The translations under genes and the position numbers were made by a program. From the NCBI RefSeq assembly GCF_055900595.2, contig NZ_CM148325.1: a stretch of DNA of 64,000 nucleotides; one strand, given 5' to 3'. Below the pieces are notes generated by a model, which searched no databases, had not been told where the DNA came from, and was given only the letters and a program-made list of their open reading frames with translations. Below are positions 1 through 55,200 of the stretch, piece by piece; position 1 is the stretch's first letter; every line of letters starts with the position of its first letter.

Positions 1-209
1 CTTTAATACGCTGTAAGTATTACTATACCTGCGCAACCAGACCCTGTGAAAAGTCCAGAATGCCATTTTCTGCATTATTCACATATTTGATAAAAACTCT
101 CTATCAAAGCGACGTTTTGATAAAAAAATATTGTCCCCGAAGTGATGGGAAAAGTCATAGCGGCAATGCAGAATAGAAAGTGCTCATCTTTTATTTCCCG
201 GGAGGGGAA

Positions 210-1418: not shown

Positions 1419-1433
1419 TTTGATACTCCCCCC

Positions 1434-1480
1434 TGACTCCTCCATACTGAAAGTGAACTGACAGCCAAATGGAGGAGTCA
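1434..1480 (+). promoter_or_regulatory. Perfect 12-bp inverted repeat (TGACTCCTCCAT / ATGGAGGAGTCA) whose 3-prime arm contains the grxB Shine-Dalgarno GGAGG
   Basis: Read directly: 1434..1445 pairs with 1469..1480, 23-nt loop, immediately upstream of GTG start at 1482; no U-tract, so not a classical terminator. Confidence 0.4.
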
Positions 1481-1481
1481 C

Positions 1482-2129
1482 GTGAAGCTATACATTTACG
1501 ATCACTGCCCTTACTGCCTCAAAGCCCGCATGATTTTCGGCCTGAAAAATATCCCCGTCGAATTACATGTTCTGCTCAATGACGACGCAGAAACACCCAC
1601 CCGGATGGTCGGTCAAAAACAGGTTCCCATTCTGCAAAAAGATGACAGCCGCTATATGCCAGAAAGCATGGACATCGTTCACTATGTCGATAAACTCGAC
1701 GGCAAACCGTTACTGACCGGCAAACGTTCACCTGCCATTGAAGAATGGCTGCGCAAGGTCAACGGCTACGCCAACAAACTGCTGTTACCGCGTTTTGCCA
1801 AATCGGCATTTGATGAGTTTTCTACTCCCGCCGCACGCAAATATTTTGTCGACAAGAAAGAAGCCAGCGCGGGTAATTTTTCCGACCTGCTGGCCCACTC
1901 TGACGGTCTGATTAAGAATATCAGCGATGATTTTCGTGCGCTGGACAAACTTATCGTCAAACCGAACGCCGTGAATGGCGAACTTTCGGAAGACGATATT
2001 CAGCTATTTCCGCTCCTGCGTAATCTGACGCTGGTAGCCGGAATCAACTGGCCAAGCCGCGTTGCTGATTACCGCGATAATATGGCGAAACAGACACAAA
2101 TCAATTTGTTATCATCAATGGCGATTTAA
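1482..2129 (+). CDS. grxB: Glutaredoxin 2
   Basis: 215-aa ORF, GTG start, CPYC active site (MKLYIYDHCPYCLKARMIFGL); recognised as GrxB. Confidence 0.93.
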   Translation: MKLYIYDHCPYCLKARMIFGLKNIPVELHVLLNDDAETPTRMVGQKQVPILQKDDSRYMPESMDIVHYVDKLDGKPLLTGKRSPAIEEWLRKVNGYANKLLLPRFAKSAFDEFSTPAARKYFVDKKEASAGNFSDLLAHSDGLIKNISDDFRALDKLIVKPNAVNGELSEDDIQLFPLLRNLTLVAGINWPSRVADYRDNMAKQTQINLLSSMAI

Positions 2130-2262
2130 TCCTGACCCGCCGCGGCAGCCTGTATTCGCGGGTTGCCGCCGTTTTCAGTTTTTTCTGCTGGCGAGTTTAT
2201 CGCTGGTGACACATGCTGCGTTGTGTCAGGATATTGACGCAGATTTCATGTCGAGGACTACC

Positions 2263-2823
2263 ATGAACAAGTTTTTATTTGCCGCTGTATTGTTCGTCAG
2301 TGGCCTGCTCGTTGGCTGTAATCAACTCACCCAATACACCATCACCGAACAAGAAATTAACCAGTCGCTTGCGAAACATAATAATTTCTCAAAAGATATC
2401 GGTTTACCCGGCGTGGCTGACGCCCATATTGTTCTGACAAACCTGACCAGCCAAATTGGTCGCGAAGAGCCGAATAAGGTTACCCTAACCGGAGACGCCA
2501 ATCTGGACATGAACTCCCTGTTCGGTAGCCAGAAAGCGACCATGAAACTGAAGCTGAAAGCGCTGCCTGTGTTTGATAAAGAAAAAGGCGCGATCTTCCT
2601 GAAAGAGATGGAAGTAGTCGATGCGACGGTACAACCGGAAAAAATGCAAACGGTGATGCAAACGTTGCTTCCCTATTTGAACCAGGCATTACGCAATTAC
2701 TTTAACCAGCAACCTGCTTATGTCCTGCGCGAAGATGGCAGTAAGGGCGAAGCAATGGCGAAGAAACTGGCGAAAGGTATTGAAGTGAAGCCTGGTGAAA
2801 TTGTCATTCCGTTTACTGATTAA
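2263..2823 (+). CDS. yceB: Lipoprotein YceB (DUF1439 family)
   Basis: ATG at 2263 inside ORF 2062..2823; MNKFLFAAVLFVSGLLVGC lipoprotein signal with lipobox; 186 aa. Confidence 0.88.
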   Translation: MNKFLFAAVLFVSGLLVGCNQLTQYTITEQEINQSLAKHNNFSKDIGLPGVADAHIVLTNLTSQIGREEPNKVTLTGDANLDMNSLFGSQKATMKLKLKALPVFDKEKGAIFLKEMEVVDATVQPEKMQTVMQTLLPYLNQALRNYFNQQPAYVLREDGSKGEAMAKKLAKGIEVKPGEIVIPFTD

Positions 2824-2928
2824 TCACGAGGGCGCATTTGCGCCCTTTATTTTTCGTGCAAAGGAAAACGTTTCCGCTTATCCTTTGTGTCCGGCAAAAA
2901 CATCCCTTCAGCCGGAGCATAGAGATTA

Positions 2929-3975
2929 ATGACTGCACCATCCCAGGTATTAAAGATCCGCCGCCCAGACGACTGGCACCTTCACCTCCGCGATGGCGAC
3001 ATGTTAAAAACTGTCGTGCCTTATACCAGCGAAATATATGGGCGGGCTATCGTAATGCCCAATCTGGCTCCGCCCGTGACCACCGTTGAGGCTGCCGTGG
3101 CATATCGCCAGCGTATTCTCGACGCCGTACCTGCCGGGCACGATTTCACCCCGCTGATGACCTGTTATTTAACAGATTCGCTGGACCCTAATGAGCTGGA
3201 ACGTGGATTTAACGAAGGCGTGTTCACCGCTGCAAAACTTTACCCCGCAAACGCAACCACTAACTCCAGCCACGGCGTGACGTCGGTTGATGCAATCATG
3301 CCGGTACTTGAGCGCATGGAAAAAATCGGTATGCCGCTACTGGTGCATGGTGAAGTGACACATGCAGATATCGACATTTTTGATCGTGAGGCGCGCTTTA
3401 TAGAAAGCGTAATGGAACCGCTTCGCCAGCGCCTGACCGCGCTGAAAGTCGTTTTTGAGCACATCACCACCAAAGATGCTGCCGACTATGTCCGTGACGG
3501 AAATGAACGTCTGGCTGCCACCATCACTCCGCAGCATCTGATGTTTAACCGCAACCATATGCTGGTTGGTGGCGTGCGTCCACACCTGTATTGTCTACCC
3601 ATCCTCAAACGCAATATTCACCAACAGGCACTGCGTGAACTGGTCGCCAGCGGTTTTAATCGCGTATTCCTCGGTACGGATTCTGCGCCGCATGCACGTC
3701 ATCGCAAAGAGAGCAGCTGCGGCTGCGCGGGCTGCTTCAACGCCCCAACCGCGCTGGGCAGTTACGCTACCGTCTTTGAAGAGATGAATGCTCTGCAGCA
3801 CTTTGAAGCATTCTGTTCTGTAAACGGCCCACAGTTCTATGGCTTGCCGGTCAACGACACATTCATCGAACTGGTCCGCAAAGAGCAACAGGTTGCTGAA
3901 AGCATCGCATTGACTGATGACACACTGGTGCCATTCCTCGCCGGGGAAACGGTACGCTGGTCCGTTAAACAATAA
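2929..3975 (+). CDS. pyrC: Dihydroorotase
   Basis: 348-aa [27 protein letters not shown]; metal-binding HxH motif; recognised as PyrC. Confidence 0.95.
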
Positions 3976-4011
3976 AAATCGTAGCTTCCTGTTGTCATTA
4001 GGTTATTTTAA

Positions 4012-4027
4012 CTGTATAAATAACCAG
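4012..4027 (+). promoter_or_regulatory. LexA (SOS) box CTGTATAAATAACCAG upstream of dinI
   Basis: CTGT-N8-CCAG palindrome-like motif ~20 bp upstream of dinI ATG; matches SOS box pattern CTGT-N8-ACAG with one deviation. Confidence 0.7.
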
Positions 4028-4048
4028 TATATTCAACAGGGGGCTATT

Positions 4049-4294
4049 ATGCGAATTGAAGTCACCATAGCGAAAACTTCTCCATTGCCAGCTGGGGCTA
4101 TTGACGCCCTGGCTGGCGAACTTTCCCGCCGTATTCAGTATGCGTTTCCTGATAATGAAGGCCACGTATCGGTACGTTATGCCGCAGCGAATAATTTATC
4201 GGTTATTGGCGCGACAAAAGAAGATAAACAGCGCATTAGCGAAATTCTCCAGGAAACGTGGGAAAGCGCCGATGACTGGTTTGTCAGCGAATAA
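4049..4294 (+). CDS. dinI: DNA damage-inducible protein I
   Basis: 81-aa product MRIEVTIAKTSPLPAGAIDALAGELSRRIQ from internal ATG of ORF 3917..4294; recognised as DinI. Confidence 0.92.
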   Translation: MRIEVTIAKTSPLPAGAIDALAGELSRRIQYAFPDNEGHVSVRYAAANNLSVIGATKEDKQRISEILQETWESADDWFVSE

Positions 4295-4323
4295 TATGCA
4301 GTGATTTTTGTTTTTGCCGGGTC

Positions 4324-4346
4324 GCCCCGGCTTTTTTATTTTACTT
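4324..4346 (+). terminator. Rho-independent terminator after dinI
   Basis: GC hairpin GCCGGGTCGCCCCGGC followed by TTTTTTA. Confidence 0.7.
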
Positions 4347-4583
4347 ACGATTTTCGAGTACAAAATTCCTACACTTCCTCAAAATAATTGCACAATATGC
4401 TAAAAAAATATGAATGACATGCTGTTTTATTGTTCATATAAATCTTAAAAGCAAAAATTTATCTGTTCCCCCCTTTAAAAATTCGGTGAATACCCTTACT
4501 TATTGGTATACTGAAGTTGCTTCAGATAAAAACGCATTGAACCTCGAATAACGTTGTCTAGTAACACGAATTAGGGGGCCATG

Positions 4584-4838
4584 ATGGAAAAAAATAATGA
4601 AGTCATTCAGACTCATCCGCTCGTAGGGTGGGACATCAGCACCGTTGATAGCTATGATGCGCTGATGTTGCGTTTGCATTACCAGACCCCAAATAAGTCC
4701 GAGCAGGAAGGGACTGAAGTTGGTCAGACGCTCTGGTTAACCACTGATGTTGCCAGACAATTTATTTCGATATTAGAAGCAGGAATCGCCAAAATTGAAT
4801 CCGGTGATTTCCCGGTAAACGAGTATCGGCGTCATTAA
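4584..4838 (+). CDS. bssS: Biofilm regulator BssS
   Basis: 84-aa product MEKNNEVIQTHPLVGWDISTVDSYDALML; recognised as BssS (YceP). Confidence 0.9.
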   Translation: MEKNNEVIQTHPLVGWDISTVDSYDALMLRLHYQTPNKSEQEGTEVGQTLWLTTDVARQFISILEAGIAKIESGDFPVNEYRRH

Positions 4839-4952
4839 CATGACATGACCATCCACCCAAAAGGCACCTCACTGGTGCCTTTACCATTTCTGGGTTGTAT
4901 ATCTGCATTCAGTTAATTACTCTGCTTAAACCATGAGAGCAGAGAGAAAAAA

Positions 4953-6071
4953 ATGAAATACGATCTCATCATTATTGGCAGCGGTTCCGTAGGCGCTGCC
5001 GCCGGGTATTATGCAACCCGTGCCGGTTTAAACGTGCTAATGACCGACGCCCATATGCCACCGCATCAACACGGCAGCCACCACGGCGATACGCGATTAA
5101 TTCGCCATGCTTATGGTGAAGGCGAAAAGTATGTCCCGCTGGTCCTCCGCGCGCAAACGCTGTGGGATGAACTCTCCCGCCACAACGAAGAAGATCCCAT
5201 TTTTGTACGCTCTGGCGTCATTAACCTTGGCCCGGCTGATTCCACATTTCTCGCCAACGTCGCCCACAGCGCCGAACAGTGGCAACTCAACGTTGAAAAG
5301 CTCGATGCGCAAGGGATTATGGCCCGCTGGCCGGAAATACGCGTCCCGGACAACTACATCGGCTTATTTGAGACTGATTCCGGCTTTTTACGCAGCGAAC
5401 TGGCGATTAAAACCTGGATTCAACTGGCGAAGGAAGCGGGTTGTGCGCAGTTGTTCAACTGCCCGGTCACCGCAATTCGTCATGACGATGATGGCGTAAC
5501 TATTGAAACCGCTGACGGTGAGTATCAGGCGAAAAAGGCGATTGTCTGCGCGGGAACATGGGTAAAAGATCTGCTCCCGGAACTGCCTGTCCAGCCCGTA
5601 CGCAAAGTATTTACCTGGTATCAGGCCGATGGTCGCTATAGCGTGAAGAATAAATTCCCGGCGTTTACCGGTGAACTGCCCAATGGCGATCAATATTATG
5701 GTTTTCCGGCAGAAAACGACGCGTTGAAGATTGGCAAACATAACGGAGGCCAGGTTATCCATTCAGCGGATGAACGTGTTCCGTTTGCGGAAGTCGTCAG
5801 CGATGGCTCGGAAGCCTTCCCGTTCTTGCGCAATGTATTGCCGGGTATCGGTTGCTGCCTGTACGGCGCTGCCTGCACCTATGATAATTCGCCTGACGAA
5901 GATTTTATTATCGATACTCTACCCGGCCACGATAATACACTGCTCATTACCGGCCTGAGCGGGCACGGTTTTAAATTTGCGTCAGTTTTAGGGGAAATAG
6001 CTGCCGATTTTGCGCAAGACAAAAAAAGCGATTTTGATTTGACGCCATTCATGCTTTCCCGCTTCCAATAA
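4953..6071 (+). CDS. solA: N-methyl-L-tryptophan oxidase
   Basis: 372-aa ORF with N-terminal FAD-binding GxGxxG ([15 protein letters not shown]); recognised as SolA. Confidence 0.93.
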
Positions 6072-6080
6072 TCATCATTA

Positions 6081-6106
6081 CGGCCTCCAGAATGAGGCCG
6101 TTTTTA
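6081..6106 (+). terminator. Rho-independent terminator after solA
   Basis: Hairpin CGGCCTC-cagaat-GAGGCCG followed by TTTTTA. Confidence 0.65.
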
Positions 6107-6232
6107 CAGGAGTATTTAATGCGTCGGCTGTTGCACTATCTCATCAATAATATTCGCGAGCATCTGATGCTTTATCTTTTTCTCTGGGGACTGTTGGCAA
6201 TTATGGACCTGATCTACGTGTTTTATTTTTAG
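6092..6232 (+). CDS. yceO: Small membrane protein YceO (46 aa; alternative 37-aa start at 6119)
   Basis: Short ORF not in supplied track: [46 protein letters not shown]; hydrophobic C-terminus; first ATG lies inside the solA terminator hairpin, so start is uncertain. Confidence 0.45.
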
Positions 6233-6493
6233 TTTTTCCGCACTGACATAAACTGACAAATATTTAATCTCCCTTTCATTTAGCGTGAAAAATTGAATGA
6301 GATTCTTCCTGCCTCTACAGCACTCACCAGACCTTCCAGATGCTGAACCCACTAAACTTATGAAGATTCTTTCATTATTAATTCAAAATTATTGAAATAA
6401 AAATAAATATCATTCAATTTGTTATTTTTGTGTTGCAATTCATTCTCCGACACGCCATTTTCTTTCTCTCGCAAATTCTTTTTGGATGCACTT

Positions 6494-7060
6494 ATGTCAT
6501 TCACAAATACCCCTGAACGCTATGGTGTTATATCTGCGGCCTTACATTGGCTAAGCGCAATTATTGTCTATGGCATGTTTGCTTTAGGTCTGTGGATGGT
6601 CACGCTCAGCTATTACGATGGCTGGTACCACAAAGCACCCGAATTGCATAAAAGCATCGGCATTTTGTTAATGATGGGGCTGGTTATTCGCGTTCTTTGG
6701 CGTGTCATATCTCCACCGCCGGGTCCGCTGCAAAGTTATTCGCCCATGACTCGTGTTGGCGCAAAGGCTGGACATCTTGCATTGTACCTATTGCTCTTTG
6801 CCATCGGCATCAGCGGCTATCTGATCTCAACTGCCGATGGTAAACCGATCAGCGTTTTTGGCTGGTTTGACGTCCCCGCGACCCTCGCCGACGCTGGCGC
6901 ACAGGCTGACTTTGCCGGTGCCCTGCATTTTTGGCTCGCGTGGAGCGTCGTAGTACTGTCCGTTATGCACGGATTTATGGCCCTGAAGCATCATTTCATC
7001 GATAAAGACGACACTCTGAAGCGCATGCTGGGAAAGTCGTCATCTGACTATGGAGTATAA
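6494..7060 (+). CDS. yceJ: Cytochrome b561-family protein YceJ
   Basis: 188-aa product MSFTNTPERYGVISAALHWLSAIIVYGMFALG from internal ATG of ORF 6419..7060; four hydrophobic segments with conserved His. Confidence 0.88.
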   Translation: MSFTNTPERYGVISAALHWLSAIIVYGMFALGLWMVTLSYYDGWYHKAPELHKSIGILLMMGLVIRVLWRVISPPPGPLQSYSPMTRVGAKAGHLALYLLLFAIGISGYLISTADGKPISVFGWFDVPATLADAGAQADFAGALHFWLAWSVVVLSVMHGFMALKHHFIDKDDTLKRMLGKSSSDYGV

Positions 7061-7063
7061 AAA

Positions 7064-7639
7064 ATGAAAAAAAGCCTGCTTGGTTTAACCTTCGCTTCCT
7101 TGATGTTCTCTGCCGGTTCAGCGGTTGCCGCCGATTACAAAATTGACAAAGAAGGTCAGCACGCCTTTGTTAACTTCCGCATCCAGCATCTTGGCTATAG
7201 CTGGTTATATGGCACCTTTAAAGATTTCGACGGTACTTTTACCTTTGATGAAAAAAATCCAGCTGCCGATAAAGTGAATGTGACAATTAACACCACCAGC
7301 GTCGATACTAACCACGCCGAACGCGATAAACATCTTCGCAGTGCGGATTTTCTCAATACCGCAAAATATCCACAGGCAACATTCACCTCCACCAGCGTGA
7401 AGAAAGACGGTGACGAACTGGATATTACTGGCGATCTGACGCTGAATGGCGTAACCAAACCCGTCACGCTGGAAGCGAAATTAATTGGTCAAGGCGACGA
7501 CCCGTGGGGTGGTAAACGTGCAGGCTTCGAGGCCGAAGGCAAAATTAAGCTCAAGGACTTCAATATCAAAACAGATTTAGGTCCAGCTTCTCAGGAAGTG
7601 GATCTGATTATTTCAGTGGAAGGCGTACAGCAGAAGTAA
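7064..7639 (+). CDS. yceI: Periplasmic polyisoprenoid-binding protein YceI
   Basis: 191-aa ORF with signal peptide [22 protein letters not shown]; 4 bp after yceJ stop (operon); recognised as YceI. Confidence 0.92.
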
Positions 7640-26658: not shown

Positions 26659-26715
26659 AACTCTCTCCTGTATTCAATTCCCGCCAAGGATAGCAGGAAA
26701 CCTGATGCTTTATTA

Positions 26716-27159
<444 letters not shown>

Positions 27160-27182
27160 TTATCAAAATCATTAAGTTAAGG

Positions 27183-27244
27183 TAGATACACATCTTGTCA
27201 TATGATCAAATGGTTTCGCCAAAAATCAATAATCAGACAACAAA

Positions 27245-27252
<8 letters not shown>
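27183..27252 (-). ncRNA. IS10 antisense RNA-OUT (position inferred from the canonical IS10 map, not independently delimited)
   Basis: By established knowledge IS10 pOUT produces a ~69-nt antisense RNA overlapping the 5-prime end of the transposase mRNA near the outside end; coordinates are approximate. Confidence 0.4.
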
Positions 27253-29028
<1,776 letters not shown>

Positions 29029-29222
29029 TTATCGTTATGATCTACAAAGGCCACCAGCATAACAAATCCGTGGTCGGTGGCAAAAAAAGCAGATTTCGCT
29101 TATTAAAACTGCATATTGATTGAAGTTTGAATAAACGCGCGATTTTTTTAAAAAGTTTGTTGACCTCAGGTCATGATTTCCCTAAATTAGCGCCCGTTCC
29201 AGCAAGACAGGAACGACAATTT

Positions 29223-29310
29223 GGTGAGGTGTCCGAGTGGCTGAAGGAGCACGCCTGGAAAGTGTGTATACGGCAACGTATCGGGGGTTCGAATCCCCCC
29301 CTCACCGCCA
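29223..29310 (+). tRNA. serX: tRNA-Ser (anticodon GGA)
   Basis: GGTGAGGTGTCCGAGTGGCTGAAGGAGCACGCCTGGAAAGTGTGTATACGGCAACGTATCGGGGGTTCGAATCCCCCCCTCACCGCCA: cloverleaf with long variable arm, anticodon loop CTGGAAA, encoded CCA. Confidence 0.93.
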
Positions 29311-29413
29311 TCTTTAAAGAAGAGCTCGTACGAAGGTACGGGCTTTTTTTTCGTATATTGCACACACCGGGGGATGAAAAGCCCCGACCGGGGTTCGACA
29401 ACTGGCGACAAAC

Positions 29414-30781
29414 TCAATCATCATCCTTGCAGTTGATAAGAATTTCTGCCTCTTTTACAACTATCTTATTACGTCCGGTTTCTTTCGCTTCATATAGTGC
29501 ATTATCAGCCATTCGATAGATTTCATTCGGATTTAACGCACTTCCCTGAGTCACCACAGCGCCAATGCTAATCGTCACTTTTTGCGGTATGGCGTATTCA
29601 GGATTATCGCCTGTCAAACGCTCTACATTTGCCCTTATCCTTTCGGCTAAAACTTTCGCGCTTTCAGTATCGGTCTCCGTCAGCAAGACGCCAAACTCTT
29701 CGCCGCCAACGCGTGCTAAAAGGTCATTTGGTCGTATGCTTTTCCCAATGATGCTCACCACTGTTTTTATCACCTGATCGCCAACCGGATGCCCCCACGT
29801 ATCGTTAACTTTTTTAAAGTGATCGATATCCATAATCATGACACAATAAGACGTTTTTTGGGCTGATGCTGATTGAGCCTTCAGTTCATTGAAAAAATAA
29901 TTCCTGTTAAATATATTAGTTAATGGATCGCGATGGGCAATGTTCTTTGTTACTCGTAGCGCACTGAAAATATGGCACATAAATATTACCATAACGGTTA
30001 ATTTACTGACTACTTCAATAGTGCGGCTAATATACCAAGTGGACACACTATACCTGCTCATAAATAACAGAGAGATATTATACAGCACGGCACAGAAAGC
30101 AATCACTGATACTCCATTCCAGATATCACAGCGTAAACCATTAAAGTATAGATTAACCAAAAGCAAGATTAACCACATGAAAATCATTATGGTAACATAT
30201 GAGGTTTTCCAGACTACCTGACCATTTTCATTTGTTAACTCGGCAATATGTAAACTGTAGTCATCATAATGACTACTTAGCATGTGAGCAACTGCCGCCC
30301 CCCCAAAAATAAAAAATAGGCTTATACACAATGTCATTTTTTTGGAAAAAAAACAGCGTTTCTTATTGTTTTCACTAACTTTATTCACCAGCGCTAGCAA
30401 TATTAACATGCACAAACTCATCTGACGAAACAAATAATAAATTGCAATATCATTTTGTACAACGCTGCTTATCAAATGCCCCTCAATAAATTGCTGAATG
30501 ATAATGGCAGTTTTAACAAAGTAAATCAAACAACTCAGAAACGCTAAACTAAGTATACAGTTTGAAAATTGCACACGATCATAAATGAAATACAATTGCA
30601 TGAAAATAAATGCAACGGTATCGATAAAAAATAAAGCAATCATAACCATTAGATAGGTTGATCGTGGAACAACCTCCTCAACGGTTGGCTGATTAAACCA
30701 ACTATTTACCAAAACGAATGCAAGCCCAAACAATAAGCTCACCAATACAGTACTACTAATTCCCAAATAGTCTTTTTCCAT
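29414..30781 (-). CDS. dgcT: Membrane-anchored diguanylate cyclase (GGDEF; active-site variant GGEEF)
   Basis: Product MEKDYLGISSTVLVSLLFGLA from internal ATG of ORF 29414..30871; N-terminal multi-TM domain; C-terminal GGDEF domain (RVGGEEFGVLL); recognised as DgcT (YcdT). Confidence 0.88.
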   Translation of the reverse strand: MEKDYLGISSTVLVSLLFGLAFVLVNSWFNQPTVEEVVPRSTYLMVMIALFFIDTVAFIFMQLYFIYDRVQFSNCILSLAFLSCLIYFVKTAIIIQQFIEGHLISSVVQNDIAIYYLFRQMSLCMLILLALVNKVSENNKKRCFFSKKMTLCISLFFIFGGAAVAHMLSSHYDDYSLHIAELTNENGQVVWKTSYVTIMIFMWLILLLVNLYFNGLRCDIWNGVSVIAFCAVLYNISLLFMSRYSVSTWYISRTIEVVSKLTVMVIFMCHIFSALRVTKNIAHRDPLTNIFNRNYFFNELKAQSASAQKTSYCVMIMDIDHFKKVNDTWGHPVGDQVIKTVVSIIGKSIRPNDLLARVGGEEFGVLLTETDTESAKVLAERIRANVERLTGDNPEYAIPQKVTISIGAVVTQGSALNPNEIYRMADNALYEAKETGRNKIVVKEAEILINCKDDD

Positions 30782-42641: not shown

Positions 42642-44150
<1,509 letters not shown>

Positions 44151-44572
44151 CTAAAGTCTCCAAAAAATTATTATCGGCAATGTCGAAACTTGCCGTTATA
44201 TCTGCCACCGGAACGGGGTAACAGAGTTTATGTTTTCCCAGGGCGACCGTATCCTGCCGGAAGCGCTGGTTATTCACAATCGATTTAACACACCATTTAC
44301 ATTAAATTTTAGTGCTCAGCGATACTATTTTTCATCAGGTTGCACTCCCTCACATTTTTTGCGGTTGCACCTTTCAAAAATGTTAACTGCCGCAGAGAAA
44401 AAGTCTGAGTTATTTTTTTAATCCCTGTCATATCGATTTCTTTTATTAACATTTCATTCATTTTTAAGCTTGCTACGCAGGTCACATTTAACATGGTTGC
44501 ACAAAGTTGCAACATCATGGATATTTCACGATAACGTTAAGTTGCACCTTTCAGAACAACAGGAGTAATGGC
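44151..44572. promoter_or_regulatory. put control region with five GTTGCA PutA operator motifs between divergent putP and putA
   Basis: GTTGCA at ~44338, 44364, 44496, 44507 (inverted pair GTTGCACAAAGTTGCAAC) and 44540. Confidence 0.75.
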
Positions 44573-47500
44573 ATGGGAACCACCACCATGGGGGTTAAGC
44601 TGGACGACGCGACGCGTGAACGCATTAAGTCTGCCGCGACACGTATCGATCGCACACCGCACTGGTTAATTAAGCAGGCGATTTTTTCTTATCTTGAACA
44701 ACTGGAAAACAGCGATACTCTGCCGGAGCTACCTGCGCTGCTTTCTGGCGCGGCCAATGAGAGCGATGAAGTACCGAATCCGGCAGAGGAACCACACCAG
44801 CCATTCCTCGACTTTGCCGAGCAAATTTTGCCACAGTCGGTTTCCCGTGCGGCTATCACCGCCGCCTATCGCCGCCCGGAAACCGAAGCGGTTTCTATGC
44901 TGCTGGAACAAGCTCGCCTGCCGCAGCCGGTTGCTGAACAGGCGCATAAACTGGCGTATCAACTGGCCGATAAACTGCGTAATCAAAAAAATGCCAGTGG
45001 TCGCGCAGGCATGGTTCAGGGGTTACTGCAGGAGTTTTCGCTGTCATCGCAGGAAGGCGTGGCGCTGATGTGTCTGGCGGAAGCGCTATTGCGTATTCCC
45101 GACAAAGCCACCCGTGATGCGTTAATACGCGACAAAATCAGCAACGGTAACTGGCAGTCACATATTGGTCGTAGCCCGTCGCTGTTTGTTAATGCCGCCA
45201 CCTGGGGGCTTCTCTTTACCGGCAAACTGGTTTCTACCCATAACGAAGCCAGCCTCTCCCGTTCGCTGAATCGCATTATCGGTAAGAGTGGCGAACCGCT
45301 GATCCGCAAAGGTGTGGATATGGCGATGCGTCTGATGGGCGAGCAGTTCGTCACTGGTGAAACCATCGCGGAAGCGTTAGCCAATGCCCGCAAGCTGGAA
45401 GAGAAAGGTTTCCGTTACTCCTACGATATGCTGGGCGAAGCCGCACTGACCGCAGCGGACGCGCAGGCATATATGGTTTCCTATCAGCAGGCGATTCACG
45501 CCATTGGTAAAGCATCTAATGGTCGTGGCATCTATGAAGGTCCGGGCATTTCAATCAAGCTGTCGGCGCTGCATCCGCGTTACAGCCGCGCCCAGTATGA
45601 CCGGGTAATGGAAGAGCTTTACCCACGTCTGAAATCATTAACCTTGCTGGCGCGTCAGTACGATATTGGTATTAACATTGATGCCGAAGAGGCCGATCGT
45701 CTGGAGATCTCCCTCGATCTGCTGGAAAAACTCTGTTTCGAGCCTGAACTGGCAGGCTGGAACGGCATCGGTTTTGTTATTCAGGCTTATCAAAAACGCT
45801 GCCCGTTGGTGATTGATTACCTGATTGATCTCGCCACCCGCAGCCGTCGTCGTCTGATGATTCGCCTGGTGAAAGGCGCGTACTGGGATAGTGAAATCAA
45901 ACGTGCGCAAATGGACGGCCTTGAAGGTTATCCGGTTTATACCCGCAAGGTGTATACCGATGTTTCTTATCTCGCTTGTGCGAAAAAGCTGCTGGCGGTG
46001 CCGAATTTAATCTACCCGCAGTTTGCAACGCACAACGCCCACACGCTGGCGGCGATTTATCAACTGGCAGGTCAAAACTACTATCCGGGCCAGTACGAGT
46101 TCCAGTGCCTGCATGGTATGGGCGAGCCACTGTATGAGCAGGTCACTGGGAAAGTTGCCGACGGCAAACTTAACCGTCCGTGTCGTATTTATGCTCCGGT
46201 TGGCACACATGAAACGCTGTTGGCGTATCTGGTGCGTCGCCTGCTGGAAAACGGTGCTAACACCTCGTTTGTTAACCGCATTGCCGACACCTCTCTGCCG
46301 CTGGATGAACTGGTTGCCGATCCAGTCACTGCTGTAGAAAAATTGGCGCAACAGGAAGGGCAAACTGGATTACCGCATCCGAAAATTCCCCTGCCGCGCG
46401 ATCTTTACGGTCACGGGCGCGACAACTCGGCAGGGCTGGATCTCGCCAATGAACACCGACTGGCCTCGCTCTCCTCAGCCCTGCTCAAAAGTGCACTGCA
46501 AAAATGGCAGGCCATGCCAATGCTGGAACAACCGGTCGCGGCTGGTGAAATGTCACCCGTTATCAACCCGGCGGAACCGAAAGATATTGTGGGCTATGTG
46601 CGTGAAGCCACACCGCGTGAAGTAGAACAGGCGCTGGAAAGTGCAGTTAATAACGCGCCAATCTGGTTTGCCACGCCTCCGGCCGAACGCGCGGCGATTT
46701 TGCATCGCGCTGCCGTACTGATGGAAAGCCAGATGCAGCAACTGATTGGTATTCTGGTACGTGAGGCCGGAAAAACCTTCAGTAACGCCATTGCCGAAGT
46801 GCGTGAAGCCGTCGATTTTCTCCACTACTACGCGGGACAGGTGCGGGATGATTTCGCTAACGAAACCCACCGTCCATTAGGGCCTGTGGTGTGTATCAGC
46901 CCGTGGAATTTCCCGCTGGCGATTTTCACCGGGCAAATCGCTGCCGCACTGGCGGCAGGTAACAGCGTACTGGCAAAACCGGCAGAACAAACGCCGCTGA
47001 TTGCCGCACAAGGGATTGCCATTTTGCTGGAAGCGGGTGTACCGCCAGGCGTGGTGCAGTTGTTGCCCGGTCAGGGTGAAACCGTAGGCGCGCAACTGAC
47101 GGGTGATGATCGCGTGCGCGGGGTGATGTTTACCGGTTCAACCGAAGTCGCTACGTTACTGCAACGCAATATCGCCAGCCGCCTGGACGCTCAGGGCCGC
47201 CCCATTCCACTCATTGCGGAAACCGGCGGCATGAACGCGATGATTGTCGATTCCTCCGCCCTGACCGAACAGGTCGTCGTGGATGTACTGGCCTCGGCCT
47301 TCGACAGTGCAGGTCAGCGTTGTTCGGCACTGCGCGTGCTGTGCCTGCAAGATGAGATTGCCGACCACACGTTGAAAATGCTGCGCGGCGCAATGGCCGA
47401 ATGCCGGATGGGTAATCCGGGTCGCCTGACCACCGATATCGGTCCGGTGATTGATGGCGAAGCGAAGACCAATATTGAGCGCCATATTCAGACTATGCGT

Positions 47501-48535
47501 AGTAAAGGCCGTCCGGTGTTCCAGGCGGTGCGGGAAAACAGTGAAGATGCCCGCGAATGGCAAAGTGGCACCTTTGTCGCCCCGACGCTGATCGAACTGG
47601 ATGATTTTGCCGAATTGCAAAAAGAGGTCTTTGGTCCGGTGCTGCATGTGGTGCGTTACAACCGTAACCAGTTGCCGGAACTGATCGAACAGATTAACGC
47701 TTCCGGTTATGGTCTGACGCTTGGCGTCCATACGCGCATTGATGAAACCATCGCCCAGGTCACTGGCTCGGCGCATGTCGGTAATCTGTACGTTAACCGT
47801 AATATGGTGGGCGCAGTGGTTGGGGTGCAACCGTTCGGCGGCGAAGGGTTGTCCGGCACCGGGCCGAAAGCAGGCGGTCCGCTCTATCTCTACCGTCTGC
47901 TGGCGAATCGCCCGGAAAGTGCGCTGGCGGTGACGCTCGCGCGTCAGGATGCGGAGTATCCGGTCGATGCGCAGTTGAAAGCCGCATTGACTCAGCCGCT
48001 AAATGCACTGCGGGAATGGGCGGCAAACCGTCCAGAATTGCAGGCGTTATGTACGCAATATGGCGAGTTGGCGCAGGCAGGAACACAACGATTGTTGCCA
48101 GGGCCGACGGGTGAACGCAACACCTGGACGCTGCTGCCGCGTGAGCGCGTGTTGTGTATTGCGGATGATGAACAGGATGCGCTGACTCAGCTCGCCGCCG
48201 TGCTGGCGGTGGGTAGCCAAGTGCTGTGGCCGGATGATGCGCTGCATCGTCAGTTAGTGAAGGCATTGCCATCGGCAGTCAGCGAACGTATTCAACTGGC
48301 GAAAGCGGAAAATATAACCGCTCAACCCTTTGATGCGGTGATCTTCCACGGTGATTCGGATCAGCTTCGCGCATTGTGTGAAGCCGTTGCCGCGCGGGAT
48401 GGTGCAATTGTTTCAGTGCAGGGTTTTGCCCGTGGCGAAAGCAATATCCTGCTGGAACGGTTGTATATCGAGCGTTCGCTGAGCGTGAATACCGCTGCCG
48501 CTGGCGGTAACGCCAGTTTAATGACGATCGGTTAA
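44573..48535 (+). CDS. putA: Bifunctional proline dehydrogenase / P5C dehydrogenase and transcriptional repressor PutA
   Basis: 1320-aa product MGTTTMGVKLDDATRERIKSAATRIDRTPHWLIKQAIFSYLEQ (RHH DNA-binding N-terminus) from internal ATG of ORF 44507..48535; recognised as PutA. Confidence 0.95.
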   Translation: MGTTTMGVKLDDATRERIKSAATRIDRTPHWLIKQAIFSYLEQLENSDTLPELPALLSGAANESDEVPNPAEEPHQPFLDFAEQILPQSVSRAAITAAYRRPETEAVSMLLEQARLPQPVAEQAHKLAYQLADKLRNQKNASGRAGMVQGLLQEFSLSSQEGVALMCLAEALLRIPDKATRDALIRDKISNGNWQSHIGRSPSLFVNAATWGLLFTGKLVSTHNEASLSRSLNRIIGKSGEPLIRKGVDMAMRLMGEQFVTGETIAEALANARKLEEKGFRYSYDMLGEAALTAADAQAYMVSYQQAIHAIGKASNGRGIYEGPGISIKLSALHPRYSRAQYDRVMEELYPRLKSLTLLARQYDIGINIDAEEADRLEISLDLLEKLCFEPELAGWNGIGFVIQAYQKRCPLVIDYLIDLATRSRRRLMIRLVKGAYWDSEIKRAQMDGLEGYPVYTRKVYTDVSYLACAKKLLAVPNLIYPQFATHNAHTLAAIYQLAGQNYYPGQYEFQCLHGMGEPLYEQVTGKVADGKLNRPCRIYAPVGTHETLLAYLVRRLLENGANTSFVNRIADTSLPLDELVADPVTAVEKLAQQEGQTGLPHPKIPLPRDLYGHGRDNSAGLDLANEHRLASLSSALLKSALQKWQAMPMLEQPVAAGEMSPVINPAEPKDIVGYVREATPREVEQALESAVNNAPIWFATPPAERAAILHRAAVLMESQMQQLIGILVREAGKTFSNAIAEVREAVDFLHYYAGQVRDDFANETHRPLGPVVCISPWNFPLAIFTGQIAAALAAGNSVLAKPAEQTPLIAAQGIAILLEAGVPPGVVQLLPGQGETVGAQLTGDDRVRGVMFTGSTEVATLLQRNIASRLDAQGRPIPLIAETGGMNAMIVDSSALTEQVVVDVLASAFDSAGQRCSALRVLCLQDEIADHTLKMLRGAMAECRMGNPGRLTTDIGPVIDGEAKTNIERHIQTMRSKGRPVFQAVRENSEDAREWQSGTFVAPTLIELDDFAELQKEVFGPVLHVVRYNRNQLPELIEQINASGYGLTLGVHTRIDETIAQVTGSAHVGNLYVNRNMVGAVVGVQPFGGEGLSGTGPKAGGPLYLYRLLANRPESALAVTLARQDAEYPVDAQLKAALTQPLNALREWAANRPELQALCTQYGELAQAGTQRLLPGPTGERNTWTLLPRERVLCIADDEQDALTQLAAVLAVGSQVLWPDDALHRQLVKALPSAVSERIQLAKAENITAQPFDAVIFHGDSDQLRALCEAVAARDGAIVSVQGFARGESNILLERLYIERSLSVNTAAAGGNASLMTIG

Positions 48536-48574
48536 GCAGGTTGCCGGAGGATGCTATAACCTCCTCCGGCATCA

Positions 48575-49213
48575 TTAACGTGGTCGAATCCCCTCAAGAA
48601 TAATCCGCTGCACGTTTTCAACCGTTTGATTGAAAAACACTTCATCGCGCAACGTGGCACCTGTCACCGCCTCCACCTGAGGGGCGAAATCGGCGTAATG
48701 TTGAGTGGAAGCCCAAATCATAAAAATCAAATGCTGCGGATCAATCGGCGCGAGTTTGCCGCTTTTAACCCAACCGGCAATCAGCGCCGATTTCTCATCA
48801 ATTAATGCCTTCAAATCGCCCGTCAGTTCATCCATTAACAGCGGCGCGCCTGCCAGCATCTCCATACAGAACAGGCGCGAAGCCTGCGGATAATCGCGGG
48901 AAACTTCCAGCTTCAGACGGATGTACTCTTTGATCGCTGCCAGTGGGGCGAAATCTTCACGAAACGCCTTCAATGGTGCCAACCAGATATCCAGAATTTG
49001 CCGCAGCACGGCAATATACAGCGCCTCTTTAGACGGGAAGTAATACAGCAGATTAGTTTTTGAAACGCCCGCCAACTCTGCGATCTGCTCCAGCCTTGTG
49101 CCGTGAAAACCGAATTGTGAAAAAGTGTCCAGTGCCGCGCTAAGAATCGCTTTTTTCTTCGCGCTTACTGCGCGCGAACGTTTACCCGTTGTTTTCACTG
49201 CGCCTTGCGTCAT
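48575..49213 (-). CDS. rutR: TetR-family pyrimidine utilisation repressor RutR
   Basis: 212-aa product MTQGAVKTTGKRSRAVSAKKKAILSAALDTFSQFGFHGTRLEQIAELAGVSKTNLLYYF (TetR HTH) from internal ATG of ORF 48575..49240. Confidence 0.92.
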   Translation of the reverse strand: MTQGAVKTTGKRSRAVSAKKKAILSAALDTFSQFGFHGTRLEQIAELAGVSKTNLLYYFPSKEALYIAVLRQILDIWLAPLKAFREDFAPLAAIKEYIRLKLEVSRDYPQASRLFCMEMLAGAPLLMDELTGDLKALIDEKSALIAGWVKSGKLAPIDPQHLIFMIWASTQHYADFAPQVEAVTGATLRDEVFFNQTVENVQRIILEGIRPR

Positions 49214-49318
49214 GCGCTCTCCCCTCTTGTTGATTGGCAACAGGATAGCAAAACCCCCGCCCGGCCTCGACCTTCTGCACTCTCATCGCGCACGAATGCA
49301 TGTTTTATGTGCAACTGT

Positions 49319-49334
49319 TTTGACCGTTTAGTCC
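49319..49334. promoter_or_regulatory. Putative RutR operator TTGACCGTTTAGTCCA
   Basis: Imperfect palindrome resembling RutR consensus TTGACCAnnTGGTCAA, between rutR and rutA. Confidence 0.45.
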
Positions 49335-49399
49335 ACTTTTTTCCAGGCATTTTAGACAACTTAATATTAACACATTAATAACATTCACTTTTTAAAAAC

Positions 49400-49415
49400 T
49401 GGCATCCGCTTTGCT
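49400..49415 (+). promoter_or_regulatory. Sigma-54 (-24/-12) promoter TGGCATCCGCTTTGCT upstream of rutA
   Basis: GG and GC dinucleotides at the canonical -24/-12 spacing (TGGCAC-N5-TTGCW-like), ~30 bp upstream of rutA ATG. Confidence 0.65.
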
Positions 49416-49443
49416 AACTAGACATTACGCGGCTGAAAAGGAT

Positions 49444-51284
<1,841 letters not shown>

Positions 51285-51295
51285 GGAGTTTAATG

Positions 51296-51682
51296 ATGCC
51301 GAAATCCGTAATTATTCCTGCTGGCAGCAGCGCACCGCTGGCCCCCTTCGTTCCCGGCACGCTGGCTGATGGCGTGGTGTATGTCTCCGGCACGCTGGCT
51401 TTTGATCAACATAACAACGTGCTGTTTGCCGATGACCCAAAGGCGCAAACCCGCCACGTTCTGGAAACCATCCGCAAGGTCATCGAGACGGCGGGTGGCA
51501 CGATGGCGGATGTGACCTTCAACAGCATCTTTATTACCGACTGGAAAAATTACGCCGCGATTAACGAAATCTACGCCGAGTTTTTCCCTGATGATAAACC
51601 GGCGCGATTCTGCATTCAGTGCGGACTGGTAAAGCCTGACGCGCTGGTGGAAATCGCCACGATTGCGCATATCGCCAAGTGA
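51296..51682 (+). CDS. rutC: Aminoacrylate peracid reductase RutC (RidA/YjgF family)
   Basis: 128-aa product [33 protein letters not shown]. Confidence 0.92.
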
Positions 51683-51689
51683 GGCCGCG

Positions 51690-52502
51690 ATGAAACTTTC
51701 ACTCTCACCTCCCCCGTATGCTGATGCGCCCGTAGTGGTGTTGATTTCGGGTCTTGGCGGTAGCGGCAGTTACTGGTTATCGCAACTGGCGGTGCTGGAT
51801 CAGGAGTATCAGGTAGTCTGTTACGACCAGCGCGGTACCGGAAATAATCCAGATACGCTGGCGGAAGACTACAGTTTGGCGCAGATGGCAGAGGAACTGC
51901 ATCAGGCGCTGATGAGTGTGGGGATTGAGCGTTATGCGGTGATCGGCCATGCGCTCGGGGCGCTGGTGGGAATGCAGCTGGCGCTGGATTATCCCGCATC
52001 GGTCACTGCACTGGTCAGCGTTAACGGCTGGCTACGAATAAACGCCCATACCCGCCGCTGTTTTCAGGTTCGCGAACGATTACTGCATAGCGGCGGCGCG
52101 CAGGCATGGGTGGAAGCGCAGCCGTTGTTCCTCTACCCCGCCGACTGGATGGCGGCCCGCGCCCCTCGCCTTGAAGCGGAGGACGCGCTGGCACTGGCGC
52201 ATTTTCAGGGCAAAAACAATTTACTGCGTCGACTTAACGCCCTCAAACGTGCTGACTTTAGTCGCCATACGGATCGCATCCGCTGCCCGGTGCAAATCAT
52301 CTGCGCCAGTGATGATCTGCTGGTGCCCTCAGCCTGTTCCAGTGAACTTCATGCCGCCCTGCCCGATAGCCAGAAAATGGTGATGCGCTATGGCGGACAC
52401 GCCTGCAACGTGACCGATCCCGAAACGTTTAATGCTCTGTTGCTCAACGGGCTTGCCAGCCTGTTACATCATCGTGAAGCCGCCTGTAAGGAATTGCTAT
52501 GA
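51690..52502 (+). CDS. rutD: Aminoacrylate hydrolase RutD (alpha/beta hydrolase)
   Basis: Product [29 protein letters not shown] from internal ATG of ORF 51663..52502; GHALG nucleophile elbow. Confidence 0.9.
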
Positions 52503-53089
52503 ACGAAGCCGTTAGCCCTGGTGCGCTTAGCACCCTGTTTACCGACGCCCGAACTCACAACGGCTGGCGGGAGACACCCGTCAGCGATGAGACGTTACGG
52601 GAGATTTATGCCCTGATGAAATGGGGGCCAACGTCAGCCAACTGTTCTCCGGCGCGCATCGTATTTATCCGCACTGCAGAAGCAAAAGAACGTCTGCGCC
52701 CGGCGCTTTCCAGCGGCAATCTGCAAAAAACCCTGACCGCGCCCGTCACTGCTATCGTCGCCTGGGATAGCGAATTTTATGAACGGTTACCGCAACTGTT
52801 TCCCCACGGCGATGCCCGCAGTTGGTTTACCTCCAGCCCAAAACTTGCTGAAGAAACGGCGTTTCGCAACAGTTCCATGCAGGCGGCCTATCTGATCGTC
52901 GCCTGCCGGGCGCTGGGGCTGGATACCGGCCCGATGTCCGGCTTTGACCGTCAACACGTGGACGACGCCTTTTTTACGGGCAGCACGCTGAAGAGCAATC
53001 TGCTGATTAATATCGGCTATGGCGATAGCAGCAAGCTTTATACGCGCCTGCCACGTCTGTCCTTTGAAGAAGCCTGCGGGCTGTTGTAA
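52499..53089 (+). CDS. rutE: Malonic semialdehyde reductase RutE (nitroreductase family)
   Basis: 196-aa [26 protein letters not shown]; 4-bp overlap with rutD. Confidence 0.92.
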
Positions 53090-53099
53090 GGAGCAAACT

Positions 53100-53594
53100 A
53101 TGAACATTGTCGATCAACAAACTTTTCGCGATGCGATGTCCTGCATGGGCGCGGCGGTCAATATCATCACCACGGACGGTCCAGCCGGGCGCGCCGGGTT
53201 CACCGCCAGCGCCGTCTGCAGCGTGACCGATACGCCGCCCACATTACTGGTGTGCCTGAATCGTGGGGCGTCCGTCTGGCCGGTATTCAATGAAAATCGG
53301 ACGCTGTGTGTAAATACACTTAGCGCCGGGCAGGAGCCGCTTTCAAACCTTTTTGGCGGTAAAACGCCCATGGAACACCGCTTTGCCGCCGCCCGCTGGC
53401 AGACTGGTGTGACCGGATGCCCGCAACTGGAAGAAGCACTGGTTTCGTTTGACTGCCGTATCAGCCAGGTGGTGAGCGTCGGCACTCACGACATTCTGTT
53501 TTGCGCCATCGAAGCGATTCATCGTCACGCTACTCCCTACGGACTGGTGTGGTTTGATCGCAGTTATCACGCGCTAATGCGCCCTGCTTGTTAA
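53100..53594 (+). CDS. rutF: FMN reductase RutF (flavin reductase family)
   Basis: 164-aa product [27 protein letters not shown] from internal ATG of ORF 53019..53594. Confidence 0.9.
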
Positions 53595-53614
53595 CCTCCT
53601 TAAGGAGACAGCTG

Positions 53615-54943
53615 ATGGCAATGTTCGGTTTTCCTCACTGGCAGTTAAAATCGACCTCTACAGAGAGCGGCGTGGTCGCGCCGGATGAACGATTGCCGTT
53701 TGCTCAAACGGCAGTGATGGGTGTTCAACACGCGGTGGCAATGTTTGGCGCGACAGTGTTAATGCCGATTCTGATGGGGCTGGATCCCAACCTTTCCATT
53801 TTAATGTCGGGGATCGGCACGTTACTGTTTTTCTTTATTACCGGCGGGCGCGTCCCCAGTTATCTCGGTTCCAGCGCGGCTTTTGTCGGCGTGGTGATCG
53901 CCGCGACGGGCTTTAATGGTCAGGGAATTAATCCGAATATCAGCATCGCGCTGGGCGGGATTATCGCCTGTGGGCTGGTTTATACCGTCATTGGCCTGGT
54001 GGTGATGAAAATCGGTACGCGCTGGATTGAACGACTAATGCCGCCGGTTGTGACGGGTGCGGTGGTGATGGCGATTGGCCTGAACTTAGCGCCTATCGCA
54101 GTGAAAAGTGTATCGGCTTCGGCCTTTGATAGTTGGATGGCGGTAATGACGGTGCTGTGTATTGGGCTGGTGGCGGTGTTTACCCGTGGCATGATCCAGC
54201 GATTATTGATTCTCGTAGGATTAATTGTCGCCTGTCTGCTGTATGGCGTGATGACCAACGTTTTAGGGCTGGGAAAAGCCGTCGATTTTACTCTCGTCAG
54301 CCATGCTACCTGGTTCGGTCTGCCACATTTTTCCACTCCTGCTTTTAATGGTCAGGCAATGATGCTGATTGCGCCCGTGGCGGTGATTCTGGTGGCGGAA
54401 AACTTAGGTCATCTCAAGGCGGTCGCCGGGATGACCGGACGCAATATGGATCCATATATGGGGCGGGCATTCGTGGGCGATGGGCTGGCAACGATGCTTT
54501 CCGGCTCTGTCGGCGGTAGCGGCGTAACCACCTATGCTGAAAATATCGGTGTGATGGCTGTGACAAAAGTCTACTCGACGCTGGTGTTTGTTGCTGCTGC
54601 CGTCATCGCCTTGCTGTTGGGCTTTTCGCCGAAATTTGGCGCGCTGATCCATACCATTCCTGCACCGGTGATTGGTGGTGCTTCAATTGTTGTGTTCGGG
54701 CTGATTGCCGTCGCAGGCGCACGGATCTGGGTACAAAACCGTGTCGATTTAAGCCAGAACGGTAATTTGATTATGGTCGCAGTAACCTTAGTGCTGGGCG
54801 CGGGTGATTTTGCTCTCACGCTGGGCGGTTTTACGTTGGGAGGGATCGGTACAGCAACCTTTGGCGCGATTTTACTCAATGCGTTGTTGAGCAGAAGGTT
54901 GGTTGACGTTCCTCCGCCAGAAGTTGTTCATCAGGAACCATAA
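53615..54943 (+). CDS. rutG: Pyrimidine permease RutG (NCS2 family)
   Basis: 442-aa product MAMFGFPHWQLKSTSTESGV from internal ATG of ORF 53588..54943; multi-TM. Confidence 0.9.
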   Translation: MAMFGFPHWQLKSTSTESGVVAPDERLPFAQTAVMGVQHAVAMFGATVLMPILMGLDPNLSILMSGIGTLLFFFITGGRVPSYLGSSAAFVGVVIAATGFNGQGINPNISIALGGIIACGLVYTVIGLVVMKIGTRWIERLMPPVVTGAVVMAIGLNLAPIAVKSVSASAFDSWMAVMTVLCIGLVAVFTRGMIQRLLILVGLIVACLLYGVMTNVLGLGKAVDFTLVSHATWFGLPHFSTPAFNGQAMMLIAPVAVILVAENLGHLKAVAGMTGRNMDPYMGRAFVGDGLATMLSGSVGGSGVTTYAENIGVMAVTKVYSTLVFVAAAVIALLLGFSPKFGALIHTIPAPVIGGASIVVFGLIAVAGARIWVQNRVDLSQNGNLIMVAVTLVLGAGDFALTLGGFTLGGIGTATFGAILLNALLSRRLVDVPPPEVVHQEP

Positions 54944-54949
54944 ACAGAA

Positions 54950-55150
54950 AACCGCCGGGATTACCGGCGGTGCAGATTGTTGACAACGTGCGCATTGTTC
55001 ATGCCGGATGCGGCGTGAACGCCTTATCCGGCCTATAAAACAGTGCAAATTCAATATATTGCAATCTTCTGGTAGGCCTGATAAGCATCGCGCATCAGGC
55101 AAGCTTACATTTGTCATCAGTATCAACCGCCGGGGTAACCGGCGGTGATG
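54950..55150. repeat. REP/BIME cluster with flanking hairpins downstream of rutG
   Basis: ACCGCCGGG(A/G)TTACCGGCGGTG hairpin at both ends (54951..54975, 55126..55148) bracketing inverted REP units (GCCGGATGCGGCGTGAACGCCTTATCCGGCCTA; GTAGGCCTGATAAGCATCGCGCATCAGGCA). Confidence 0.8.
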
Positions 55151-55200
55151 GTTTTTTGACGAGCTACAGACAAAAATGCATGCGTCATTGATTAGCCCGG

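Follow-up and report, generated by a model that had tools for sequence, protein, structure and literature searches.

An empty serX-dgcT junction in a rare lineage of Escherichia coli, compared with the K-12, O157:H7 and CFT073 layouts

The serX region of the E. coli chromosome is a documented variable spot, and an empty junction between serX and dgcT (ycdT) is already known biology. In O157:H7, a segment next to dgcT has been described in the literature as O-island 47 (OI-47), the vmpA/pdeT island (PMC4076661, PMC4287979). The tRNA gene serX is itself a proven attachment site for other islands, and OI-43/OI-48 as well as the Shigella SRL island are flanked by direct copies of a 14-bp core formed by the end of the gene, with TGGCGGTGAGGGGG given as its complement (PMC3064760). 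Furthermore, some strains are entirely without pga-ycdT (PMC5635171).

In K-12 MG1655 (NC_000913.3), dgcT ends at 1094234 and is followed by IS3D (1094245-1095502), the ymdE pseudogene, ycdU and serX (1097565-1097652). The dgcT-serX distance is 3,330 bp, which is taken up by IS3D, ymdE', ycdU and ~3.4 tandem 181-bp repeats. A sequence-only reading of the DNA studied here had placed IS3, the ymdE fragment and ycdU between these two genes in K-12, and the K-12 annotation showed this to be correct.

The serX-dgcT junction in the window

The window, i.e., the whole stretch of DNA that was analysed, is 64 kb long, and its features around serX are listed in the table. When it was aligned with K-12 over its whole length, the two were collinear at 94-98% identity except for the dgcT-serX interval and an IS10 element. 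The flanking genes have the same order and orientation as those of the K-12 b1025-b1032 interval (pgaABCD, dgcT, serX, ghrA, ycdXYZ, csg). In contrast to K-12, the window is without IS3D, ymdE' and ycdU, contains a partial repeat unit rather than ~3.4 units, and encodes a DgcT tail that reads ...KEAEILINCKDDD rather than ...RDVVNFCESP. The absence of the K-12 block, as claimed in the sequence-only reading, was therefore borne out by the alignment, and K-12 does not share the spacing between serX and dgcT, which is 3,330 bp in K-12 versus 103 bp in the window. The latter value had been estimated at about 100 bp, and the range originally singled out, 29223-29413, corresponds to serX plus the entire spacer. 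No pdeT, ymdE, ycdU or IS3 was found between dgcT and serX in the window, where homology with K-12 and O157 consists of serX with the repeat unit and of the body of dgcT. Homology with K-12 runs from ghrA through serX to 29410/29411 and resumes in dgcT at 29457, the 46 bp between these points being specific to the window type.

Table. Positions of the features at and near the serX-dgcT junction of the window
Feature	Coordinates	Strand	Evidence or description
ghrA, split by IS10 near codon 174	26713..28989	-	5' part 28467-28989, 3' part 26713-27137
IS10 (annotated ISVsa5 in matches), 1,329 bp, in ghrA	27138..28466	+	9-bp duplication and terminal repeats
serX, tRNA-Ser(GGA)	29223..29310	+	ARAGORN, sole tRNA in the window; Rfam tRNA model
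Partial 181-bp RtT-type unit, first 119 bp	29292..29410	+	19 bp of serX 3' end plus 100 bp; sole copy
14-bp attachment core CCCCCTCACCGCCA, last 14 bp of serX	29297..29310	+	single copy in the window, unoccupied
serX-dgcT spacer, cargo-free	29311..29413		exactly 103 bp, direct sequence read
Putative intrinsic-terminator hairpin	29316..29351	+	A-tract, GCTCGTAC-GAAG-GTACGGGC, then T8
Ancestral-type dgcT 3' end, tail ...KEAEILINCKDDD and stop	29414..29456	-	K-12/O157 homology stops at 29456/29457
dgcT (ycdT), diguanylate cyclase, rare divergent allele	29414..30781	-	ORF and translation, 455 aa from the K-12-equivalent start codon

The Rfam tRNA model matched serX with a score of 53.8 bits (E = 1.2e-10; gathering score 29), as a cloverleaf with a GGA anticodon. 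The gene adjoins ghrA, and its neighbours on the two sides, ghrA and dgcT, are those found in K-12 and strain AST85 by alignment, which identifies it as serX and not as the identical serW, whose context at separate loci is between infA and clpA. At the serW loci (L039 8927-9232, L040 8927-9055), the sequence that follows the tRNA gene corresponds to that downstream of serX for the first 55-111 bp, so that the duplicated tRNA context includes the beginning of the repeat unit.

Within the spacer there is nothing but the putative terminator hairpin of serX and the beginning of one RtT-type repeat unit. The spacer is also 103 bp long in AST85, where it is 100% identical to that of the window, and 104 bp long in PEC1013. 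The hairpin, a GC-rich stem-loop, folds over 35 nt with -18.3 kcal/mol (z = -5.4 versus shuffled sequences). Since the terminator scan flagged the identical stem on the minus strand as well, it is possible that this hairpin serves both genes, in which case it may end both of the convergent transcripts, of serX and of dgcT. Sub-threshold Rfam matches in the spacer (sX4, Thr_leader and Plastid-psbl-rps4) were regarded as chance matches, as they scored far under their gathering scores and overlapped the tRNA or the terminator. Open reading frames spanning the spacer (29127-29519 on the plus strand, 29171-29401 and 29187-29417 on the minus strand) were not regarded as genes, as they overlap the tRNA.

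As in the rtT repeats (RF00391), the sequence downstream of serX begins a unit that is headed by the 3' end of the tRNA gene and that is tandem in K-12. The sequence of the partial unit in the window matched K-12 four times with a spacing of 181 bp, and between serX and ycdU, K-12 carries the terminal 19 bp of serX three more times, in each case at the head of a 181-bp tandem RtT-type repeat. The Rfam RtT model gave three matches on K-12 (46.3, 46.3 and 36.1 bits versus a gathering score of 45). Unlike K-12, the window has 119 of the 181 bp, and no RtT match was found within positions 28900-29700 at E <= 1. Repeats of a similar kind, 178 bp in length, are present at the tyrT locus. The number of 181-bp units was 0.66 in the window, ~3.4 in K-12 and three in L009, a divergent Escherichia locus described below, one without linker (L001 12962-13583 versus L009 11371-11778). 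In both the window and L009, a CAACTGGC/GCCAGTTG hairpin marks the end of the last unit, which breaks off within the hairpin loop.

Judged by its domains and its position, the product of the gene convergent with serX is DgcT (YcdT), with a predicted diguanylate cyclase activity. Its stop codon is a TGA at 29414..29416 on the minus strand, and pgaA starts at 31371 on the opposite strand, forming a divergent pair with dgcT. MASE4 (PF17158) and GGDEF (PF00990) are the precomputed Pfam domains of a database protein (P0005) that is 99% identical to the window DgcT. The dgcT allele of the window shares 89-90% nucleotide identity with the alleles of K-12, O157, O104 and PEC1013, versus 95-99% identity among those four. 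The flanks of dgcT are 96-98% identical to K-12, indicating that the hyper-divergence is local to the dgcT allele.

On sequence identity, the window strain is placed in a rare lineage. Only 26 complete genomes matched the junction at 99% identity or more. For the 16-kb put-rut-agp stretch (44000-60000), only 17 records were at least 99% identical, most E. coli being ~94.9% identical. The closest genomes were AST85, Z0117EC0005, E400634, E500002, E600003 and 100117. The lowest identity to K-12 in the window, 84-90%, was observed in the yccE region (58001-60000).

The IS10 element interrupting ghrA had been noticed in the sequence-only reading and was confirmed, with the correction that it is not 0.3 kb away: the end of IS10 is 756 bp from serX, and the feature at ~0.23 kb is the start codon of ghrA (~28989). 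The 9-bp target duplication, CGCCAGGCC, is found at 27129-27137 and 28467-28475, and the transposase ORF encodes 402 aa (27245-28453). The copy shares 99.5-99.9% identity with elements annotated as IS4-like ISVsa5, which we take to be equivalent to IS10R, and its terminal sequences presumably match the outside and inside ends of IS10. By alignment, ghrA is intact in K-12 and AST85, and only ORF fragments of it are present in the window. No IS10 was found at this ghrA site in any of the 5,426 complete genomes (0/5,426), and the insertion is considered strain-specific and predicted to inactivate ghrA.

The OI-47 segment and the ancestry of the empty junction

In O157:H7 ATCC 43894, the first gene beyond dgcT is the EAL gene pdeT/vmpA. 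It is followed, in order, by a regulator, a fimbrial operon, genes for a two-partner secretion pair, a fatty-acid-synthase-like cluster that includes ABC transporter genes, the ACP S-malonyltransferase gene in full length, and ycdU. Between ycdU and serX there are a partial copy of the repeat unit and, nearer to serX, an island with a tyrosine integrase. The match between K-12 and O157 extends 11 bp beyond the stop codon of dgcT and starts again within the ACP S-malonyltransferase gene; in K-12, IS3 stands in place of the intervening 31,727 bp (O157 locus positions 1441-33167). From this pattern of matches around IS3, the IS3-ymdE'-ycdU block of K-12 is identified as an IS3-truncated remnant of OI-47, the ~33-kb segment of O157:H7. 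In BL21, ymdE'-ycdU is also lost and IS3 alone is left.

The borders of the ~33-kb segment are at position 80 of the repeat unit and inside dgcT at codon ~441, ~45 bp before the ancestral stop, and therefore the last 14 codons of dgcT are rewritten. Genomes with OI-47 or its remnant encode the K-12 type of DgcT tail, while the window-type tail is kept in PEC1013, CFT073, L009 and a tra-adjacent copy of pga-dgcT. On this basis, two DgcT C-termini, and two kinds of dgcT 3' end, are recognised in E. coli. The K-12/O157 and CFT073-type dgcT sequences show 0-3 differences per 50 bp until ~45 bp before the stop and then become unalignable. Because these alleles are near-identical up to a sharp break, the possibility that homologous recombination with foreign dgcT sequence brought in the filled haplotype was rejected; the tail alone accounts for the drop in identity in the final 150-bp bin of the dgcT comparison. 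Displacement of the ancestral tail to the far end of the insert was also ruled out, as the 46-bp tail had no match in the K-12, O104 or O157 loci.

The distribution of the junction types was determined by counting BLAST matches that covered at least 80% of a junction-spanning query in 5,426 complete E. coli genomes. In this collection, which is skewed to clinical lineages so that percentages are not population frequencies, the empty-type repeat unit-dgcT junction was present in 1,480 genomes (the ghrA-serX-dgcT stretch being contiguous in 1,143 of them), the dgcT-IS3 junction in 2,293 and the dgcT-pdeT junction in 386. These counts agree with the suggestion that the junction is strain-variable. 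The ycdU gene was present in 2,608 of the 5,426 genomes. The three junction types add up to 4,159, close to the number of genomes in which the dgcT 3' end was matched at all (4,143); ~1,270 genomes are apparently without it, which fits the report of strains that lack pga-ycdT (PMC5635171).

A scan for DgcT in GTDB genome contigs yielded one Escherichia locus, L009 (NZ_JAATUR010000045.1), the other 26 being unrelated GGDEF proteins. L009 consists of dgcT, three repeat units and serX without cargo, and over 18 kb it shares 79-92% identity with both the window and K-12. The point at which its last unit meets the dgcT stop is that of the window, and its DgcT tail, ...TEAENLMNWKDDD before the stop, is of the window type at a dgcT identity of ~79%. 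L009 is filed as Escherichia coli strain SCPM-O-B-8794; given its 79-92% identity to both the window and K-12, it probably represents another Escherichia species.

A pgaABCD-dgcT module that is 87% identical to the window adjoins TraG/TraT/TraI/TraX and Rep3 genes on three NCBI contigs (DABKAV010000036, AAIXTW010000035 and ABEDHQ010000022; L041-L043, locus positions 1-7540), and the PGA operon has apparently been transferred to a conjugative plasmid. The module keeps the window-type tail and 72 bp of the repeat unit, and would therefore have been captured from a chromosome with an empty junction. Its homology stops at GCACTGTTGCAAA, an IS-like end which we take to resemble an IS6-family end. 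No close copy of the tra-adjacent module was found in PLSDB, where the matches at 88-89% were chromosomal-type sequences filed as plasmids.

Within E. coli, the junction is common, base for base, to the window type and the CFT073/PEC1013 type of dgcT, two haplotypes that differ by ~10%. The database relatives of DgcT are graded, at 93, 90, 85 and 77% identity. YcdU, unlike DgcT, is 98-100% identical among E. coli, with one shortened copy at 92%, and its next relative is at 73% with no intermediates; the gene of this relative closes the same biosynthetic cluster, which there occupies an unrelated locus, and lies beside genes for a TonB-dependent receptor and a LysR-type regulator. Such an identity gap fits a single recent acquisition of the segment.

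Because the junction and the tail recur in 1,480 genomes, in a divergent Escherichia and in a mobilised copy of pga-dgcT, the empty layout is regarded as the best candidate for the ancestral one, on the evidence of one chromosomal outgroup rather than of a tree. The suggestion in the sequence-only reading that the empty state is possibly ancestral is supported to this extent. It is very probable that the window has the original junction, which was altered elsewhere by the ~33-kb segment or by islands inserted at the serX core, neither of which is present in the lineage of the window.

Alternatively, the E. coli ancestor might have had the ~33-kb segment, which the lineage of the window and the other empty-type lineages then deleted. 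The region is deletion-prone, as seen from the 31.7 kb taken out by IS3 in the K-12 lineage, the loss of ymdE'-ycdU in BL21, the ~1,270 genomes without the dgcT 3' end and the strains without pga-ycdT altogether (PMC5635171), and the filled states (2,293 + 386) outnumber the empty one (1,480) in the collection. However, a deletion would not restore the 46-bp coding tail, which none of the examined filled-type loci contains and which is conserved both in a species with ~79% dgcT identity and in the tra-adjacent copy. Secondary loss also has to be set against a junction that is the same base for base in haplotypes ~10% apart, a window without any scar of IS3, ycdU or pdeT, and a diversity of YcdU far below that of DgcT, all of which make it improbable.

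The serX attachment core and tRNA-targeted islands

No second copy of the 14-bp core was found in the 64-kb window when one mismatch was allowed, and serX runs into its native downstream sequence without an intervening island. Because the core was found only once, the serX attachment site is read as unoccupied, that is, as a candidate receptor for the serW/serX-targeting islands with P4-family integrases. In Esc8, O104:H4, O157 and CFT073, integrase islands have (T)CCCCCTCACCGCCA, the final 14-15 bp of serX, as their distal boundary. The direct repeats of the serX 3' end whose presence in strains with inserts had been proposed as a check were accordingly recovered, as the core repeat bounds the islands in CFT073, Esc8 and O157.

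CFT073 has the same empty-type repeat unit-dgcT junction and tail type as the window, but differs from it by a 113.6-kb island between serX and the repeated core, where the window has nothing. This island, presumably PAI-CFT073-serX, contains an integrase gene together with foc/sfa, iro, Ag43 and CbtA/YeeU genes. In SUISSEKPC3NDM5, an island of the serX-targeted kind follows serX directly, as judged from the serX-proximal part of the island. In the serX islands of three loci (L005 7638-9001, L008 34713-36076 and L047 11423-12904), the integrase gene adjoins the distal repeat, on the dgcT/ycdU side, and not the intact tRNA gene. The usual arrangement of such islands is the tRNA gene followed by the integrase gene, which is reversed in the serX islands. 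The OI-48 or SpLE1-type tellurite-resistance island occupies the same slot, and its 14-bp core is intact in the window (PMC3064760, PMC4076661, PMC4287979).

Another explanation is that the K-12 block is a degraded integrative element which entered through the serX 3' end and left the repeated serX 3' ends as attachment scars. In line with this idea, the 19-bp 3' end of serX recurs three times between serX and ycdU in K-12, and serX is of proven use to other islands (PMC3064760). However, the extra copies head the 181-bp tandem repeats, and L009 has three such units and no cargo. The border of the K-12 block lies 80 bp downstream of the serX 3'-end copy that heads the last, partial repeat unit, and the other border is in dgcT, both away from the 14-bp core. 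The two ends of the ~33-kb O157 segment showed no terminal direct or inverted repeats of at least 10 bp and no integrase, and therefore no transposon or integrase signature marks its arrival; no IS ends were found there either. Moreover, the integrase island that lies between serX and the ycdU block in O157 and O104:H4 is a separate element with its own repeat. Since its borders are off the core and both an integrase and flanking repeats are lacking, the K-12 block is not regarded as tRNA-targeted, and its origin as a degraded serX element is very improbable. OI-47 and OI-48 of O157:H7 differ in the same respect, OI-48 being bounded by the tRNA core and OI-47 not; the window has neither. The view of the tRNA 3' flank as an integration site, put forward in the sequence-only reading, consequently holds for OI-48 and the CFT073 serX island, but the origin that it implied for the IS3/ymdE/ycdU block of K-12 does not.

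An assembly artefact, in which repeat collapse or a mis-join shortened the spacer, might be suspected from the tandem repeats in this region of other strains and from the nearby IS, but its probability is negligible given the 26 complete genomes that are at least 99% identical across the junction, the 1,480 genomes with the same architecture and the 99.97% identity of AST85 across 28467-35000.

Proposed history of the locus and its implications

With the empty junction as the original state, the changes at this locus would have been insertions and not losses, a direction that we infer from the comparisons above. The ~33-kb segment, with pdeT/vmpA, the fimbrial operon, the secretion pair, the fatty-acid-synthase-like cluster, full-length ymdE and ycdU, would have entered the junction, probably by a route that was not site-specific. 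It would have replaced ~85 bp, starting at position 81 of the repeat unit and reaching into the final 14 codons of dgcT, giving the OI-47 layout of O157:H7 and parting dgcT from the serX terminator. In the K-12, BL21 and O104:H4 lineages, IS3 would then have replaced 31.7 kb, leaving IS3-ymdE'-ycdU, or IS3 alone in BL21. In separate events, islands with P4-family integrases, such as OI-48 and the island taken to be PAI-CFT073-serX, would have entered site-specifically at the last 14 bp of serX. Neither kind of event would have taken place in the lineage of the window, so that its attachment site stayed free and its DgcT kept the ancestral C-terminus.

The difference in the DgcT tail or in the number of repeats might alter the stability or expression of DgcT, or remove a small RNA derived from serX, so that PGA and c-di-GMP are regulated differently in strains with the ancestral layout. 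We consider such an effect unlikely; if it is true, strains with the ancestral layout could differ in their PGA/c-di-GMP regulation.

In conclusion, the significance of these results is small beyond the annotation of the serX-dgcT locus, and only two points are mildly new, namely that the OI-47 insertion appears to have replaced the C-terminus of DgcT and that the dgcT allele of the window is unusually divergent. The window strain would have a serX attachment site that is free for islands of the tellurite-resistance and uropathogenic types. The ymdE and ycdU genes of K-12 are best read as leftovers of OI-47 of O157:H7, and the presence of two DgcT C-termini may be a small, possibly unremarked consequence of the OI-47 insertion. 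K-12 would represent a derived state at the serX-dgcT junction, which makes it unsuitable as a baseline for this locus.
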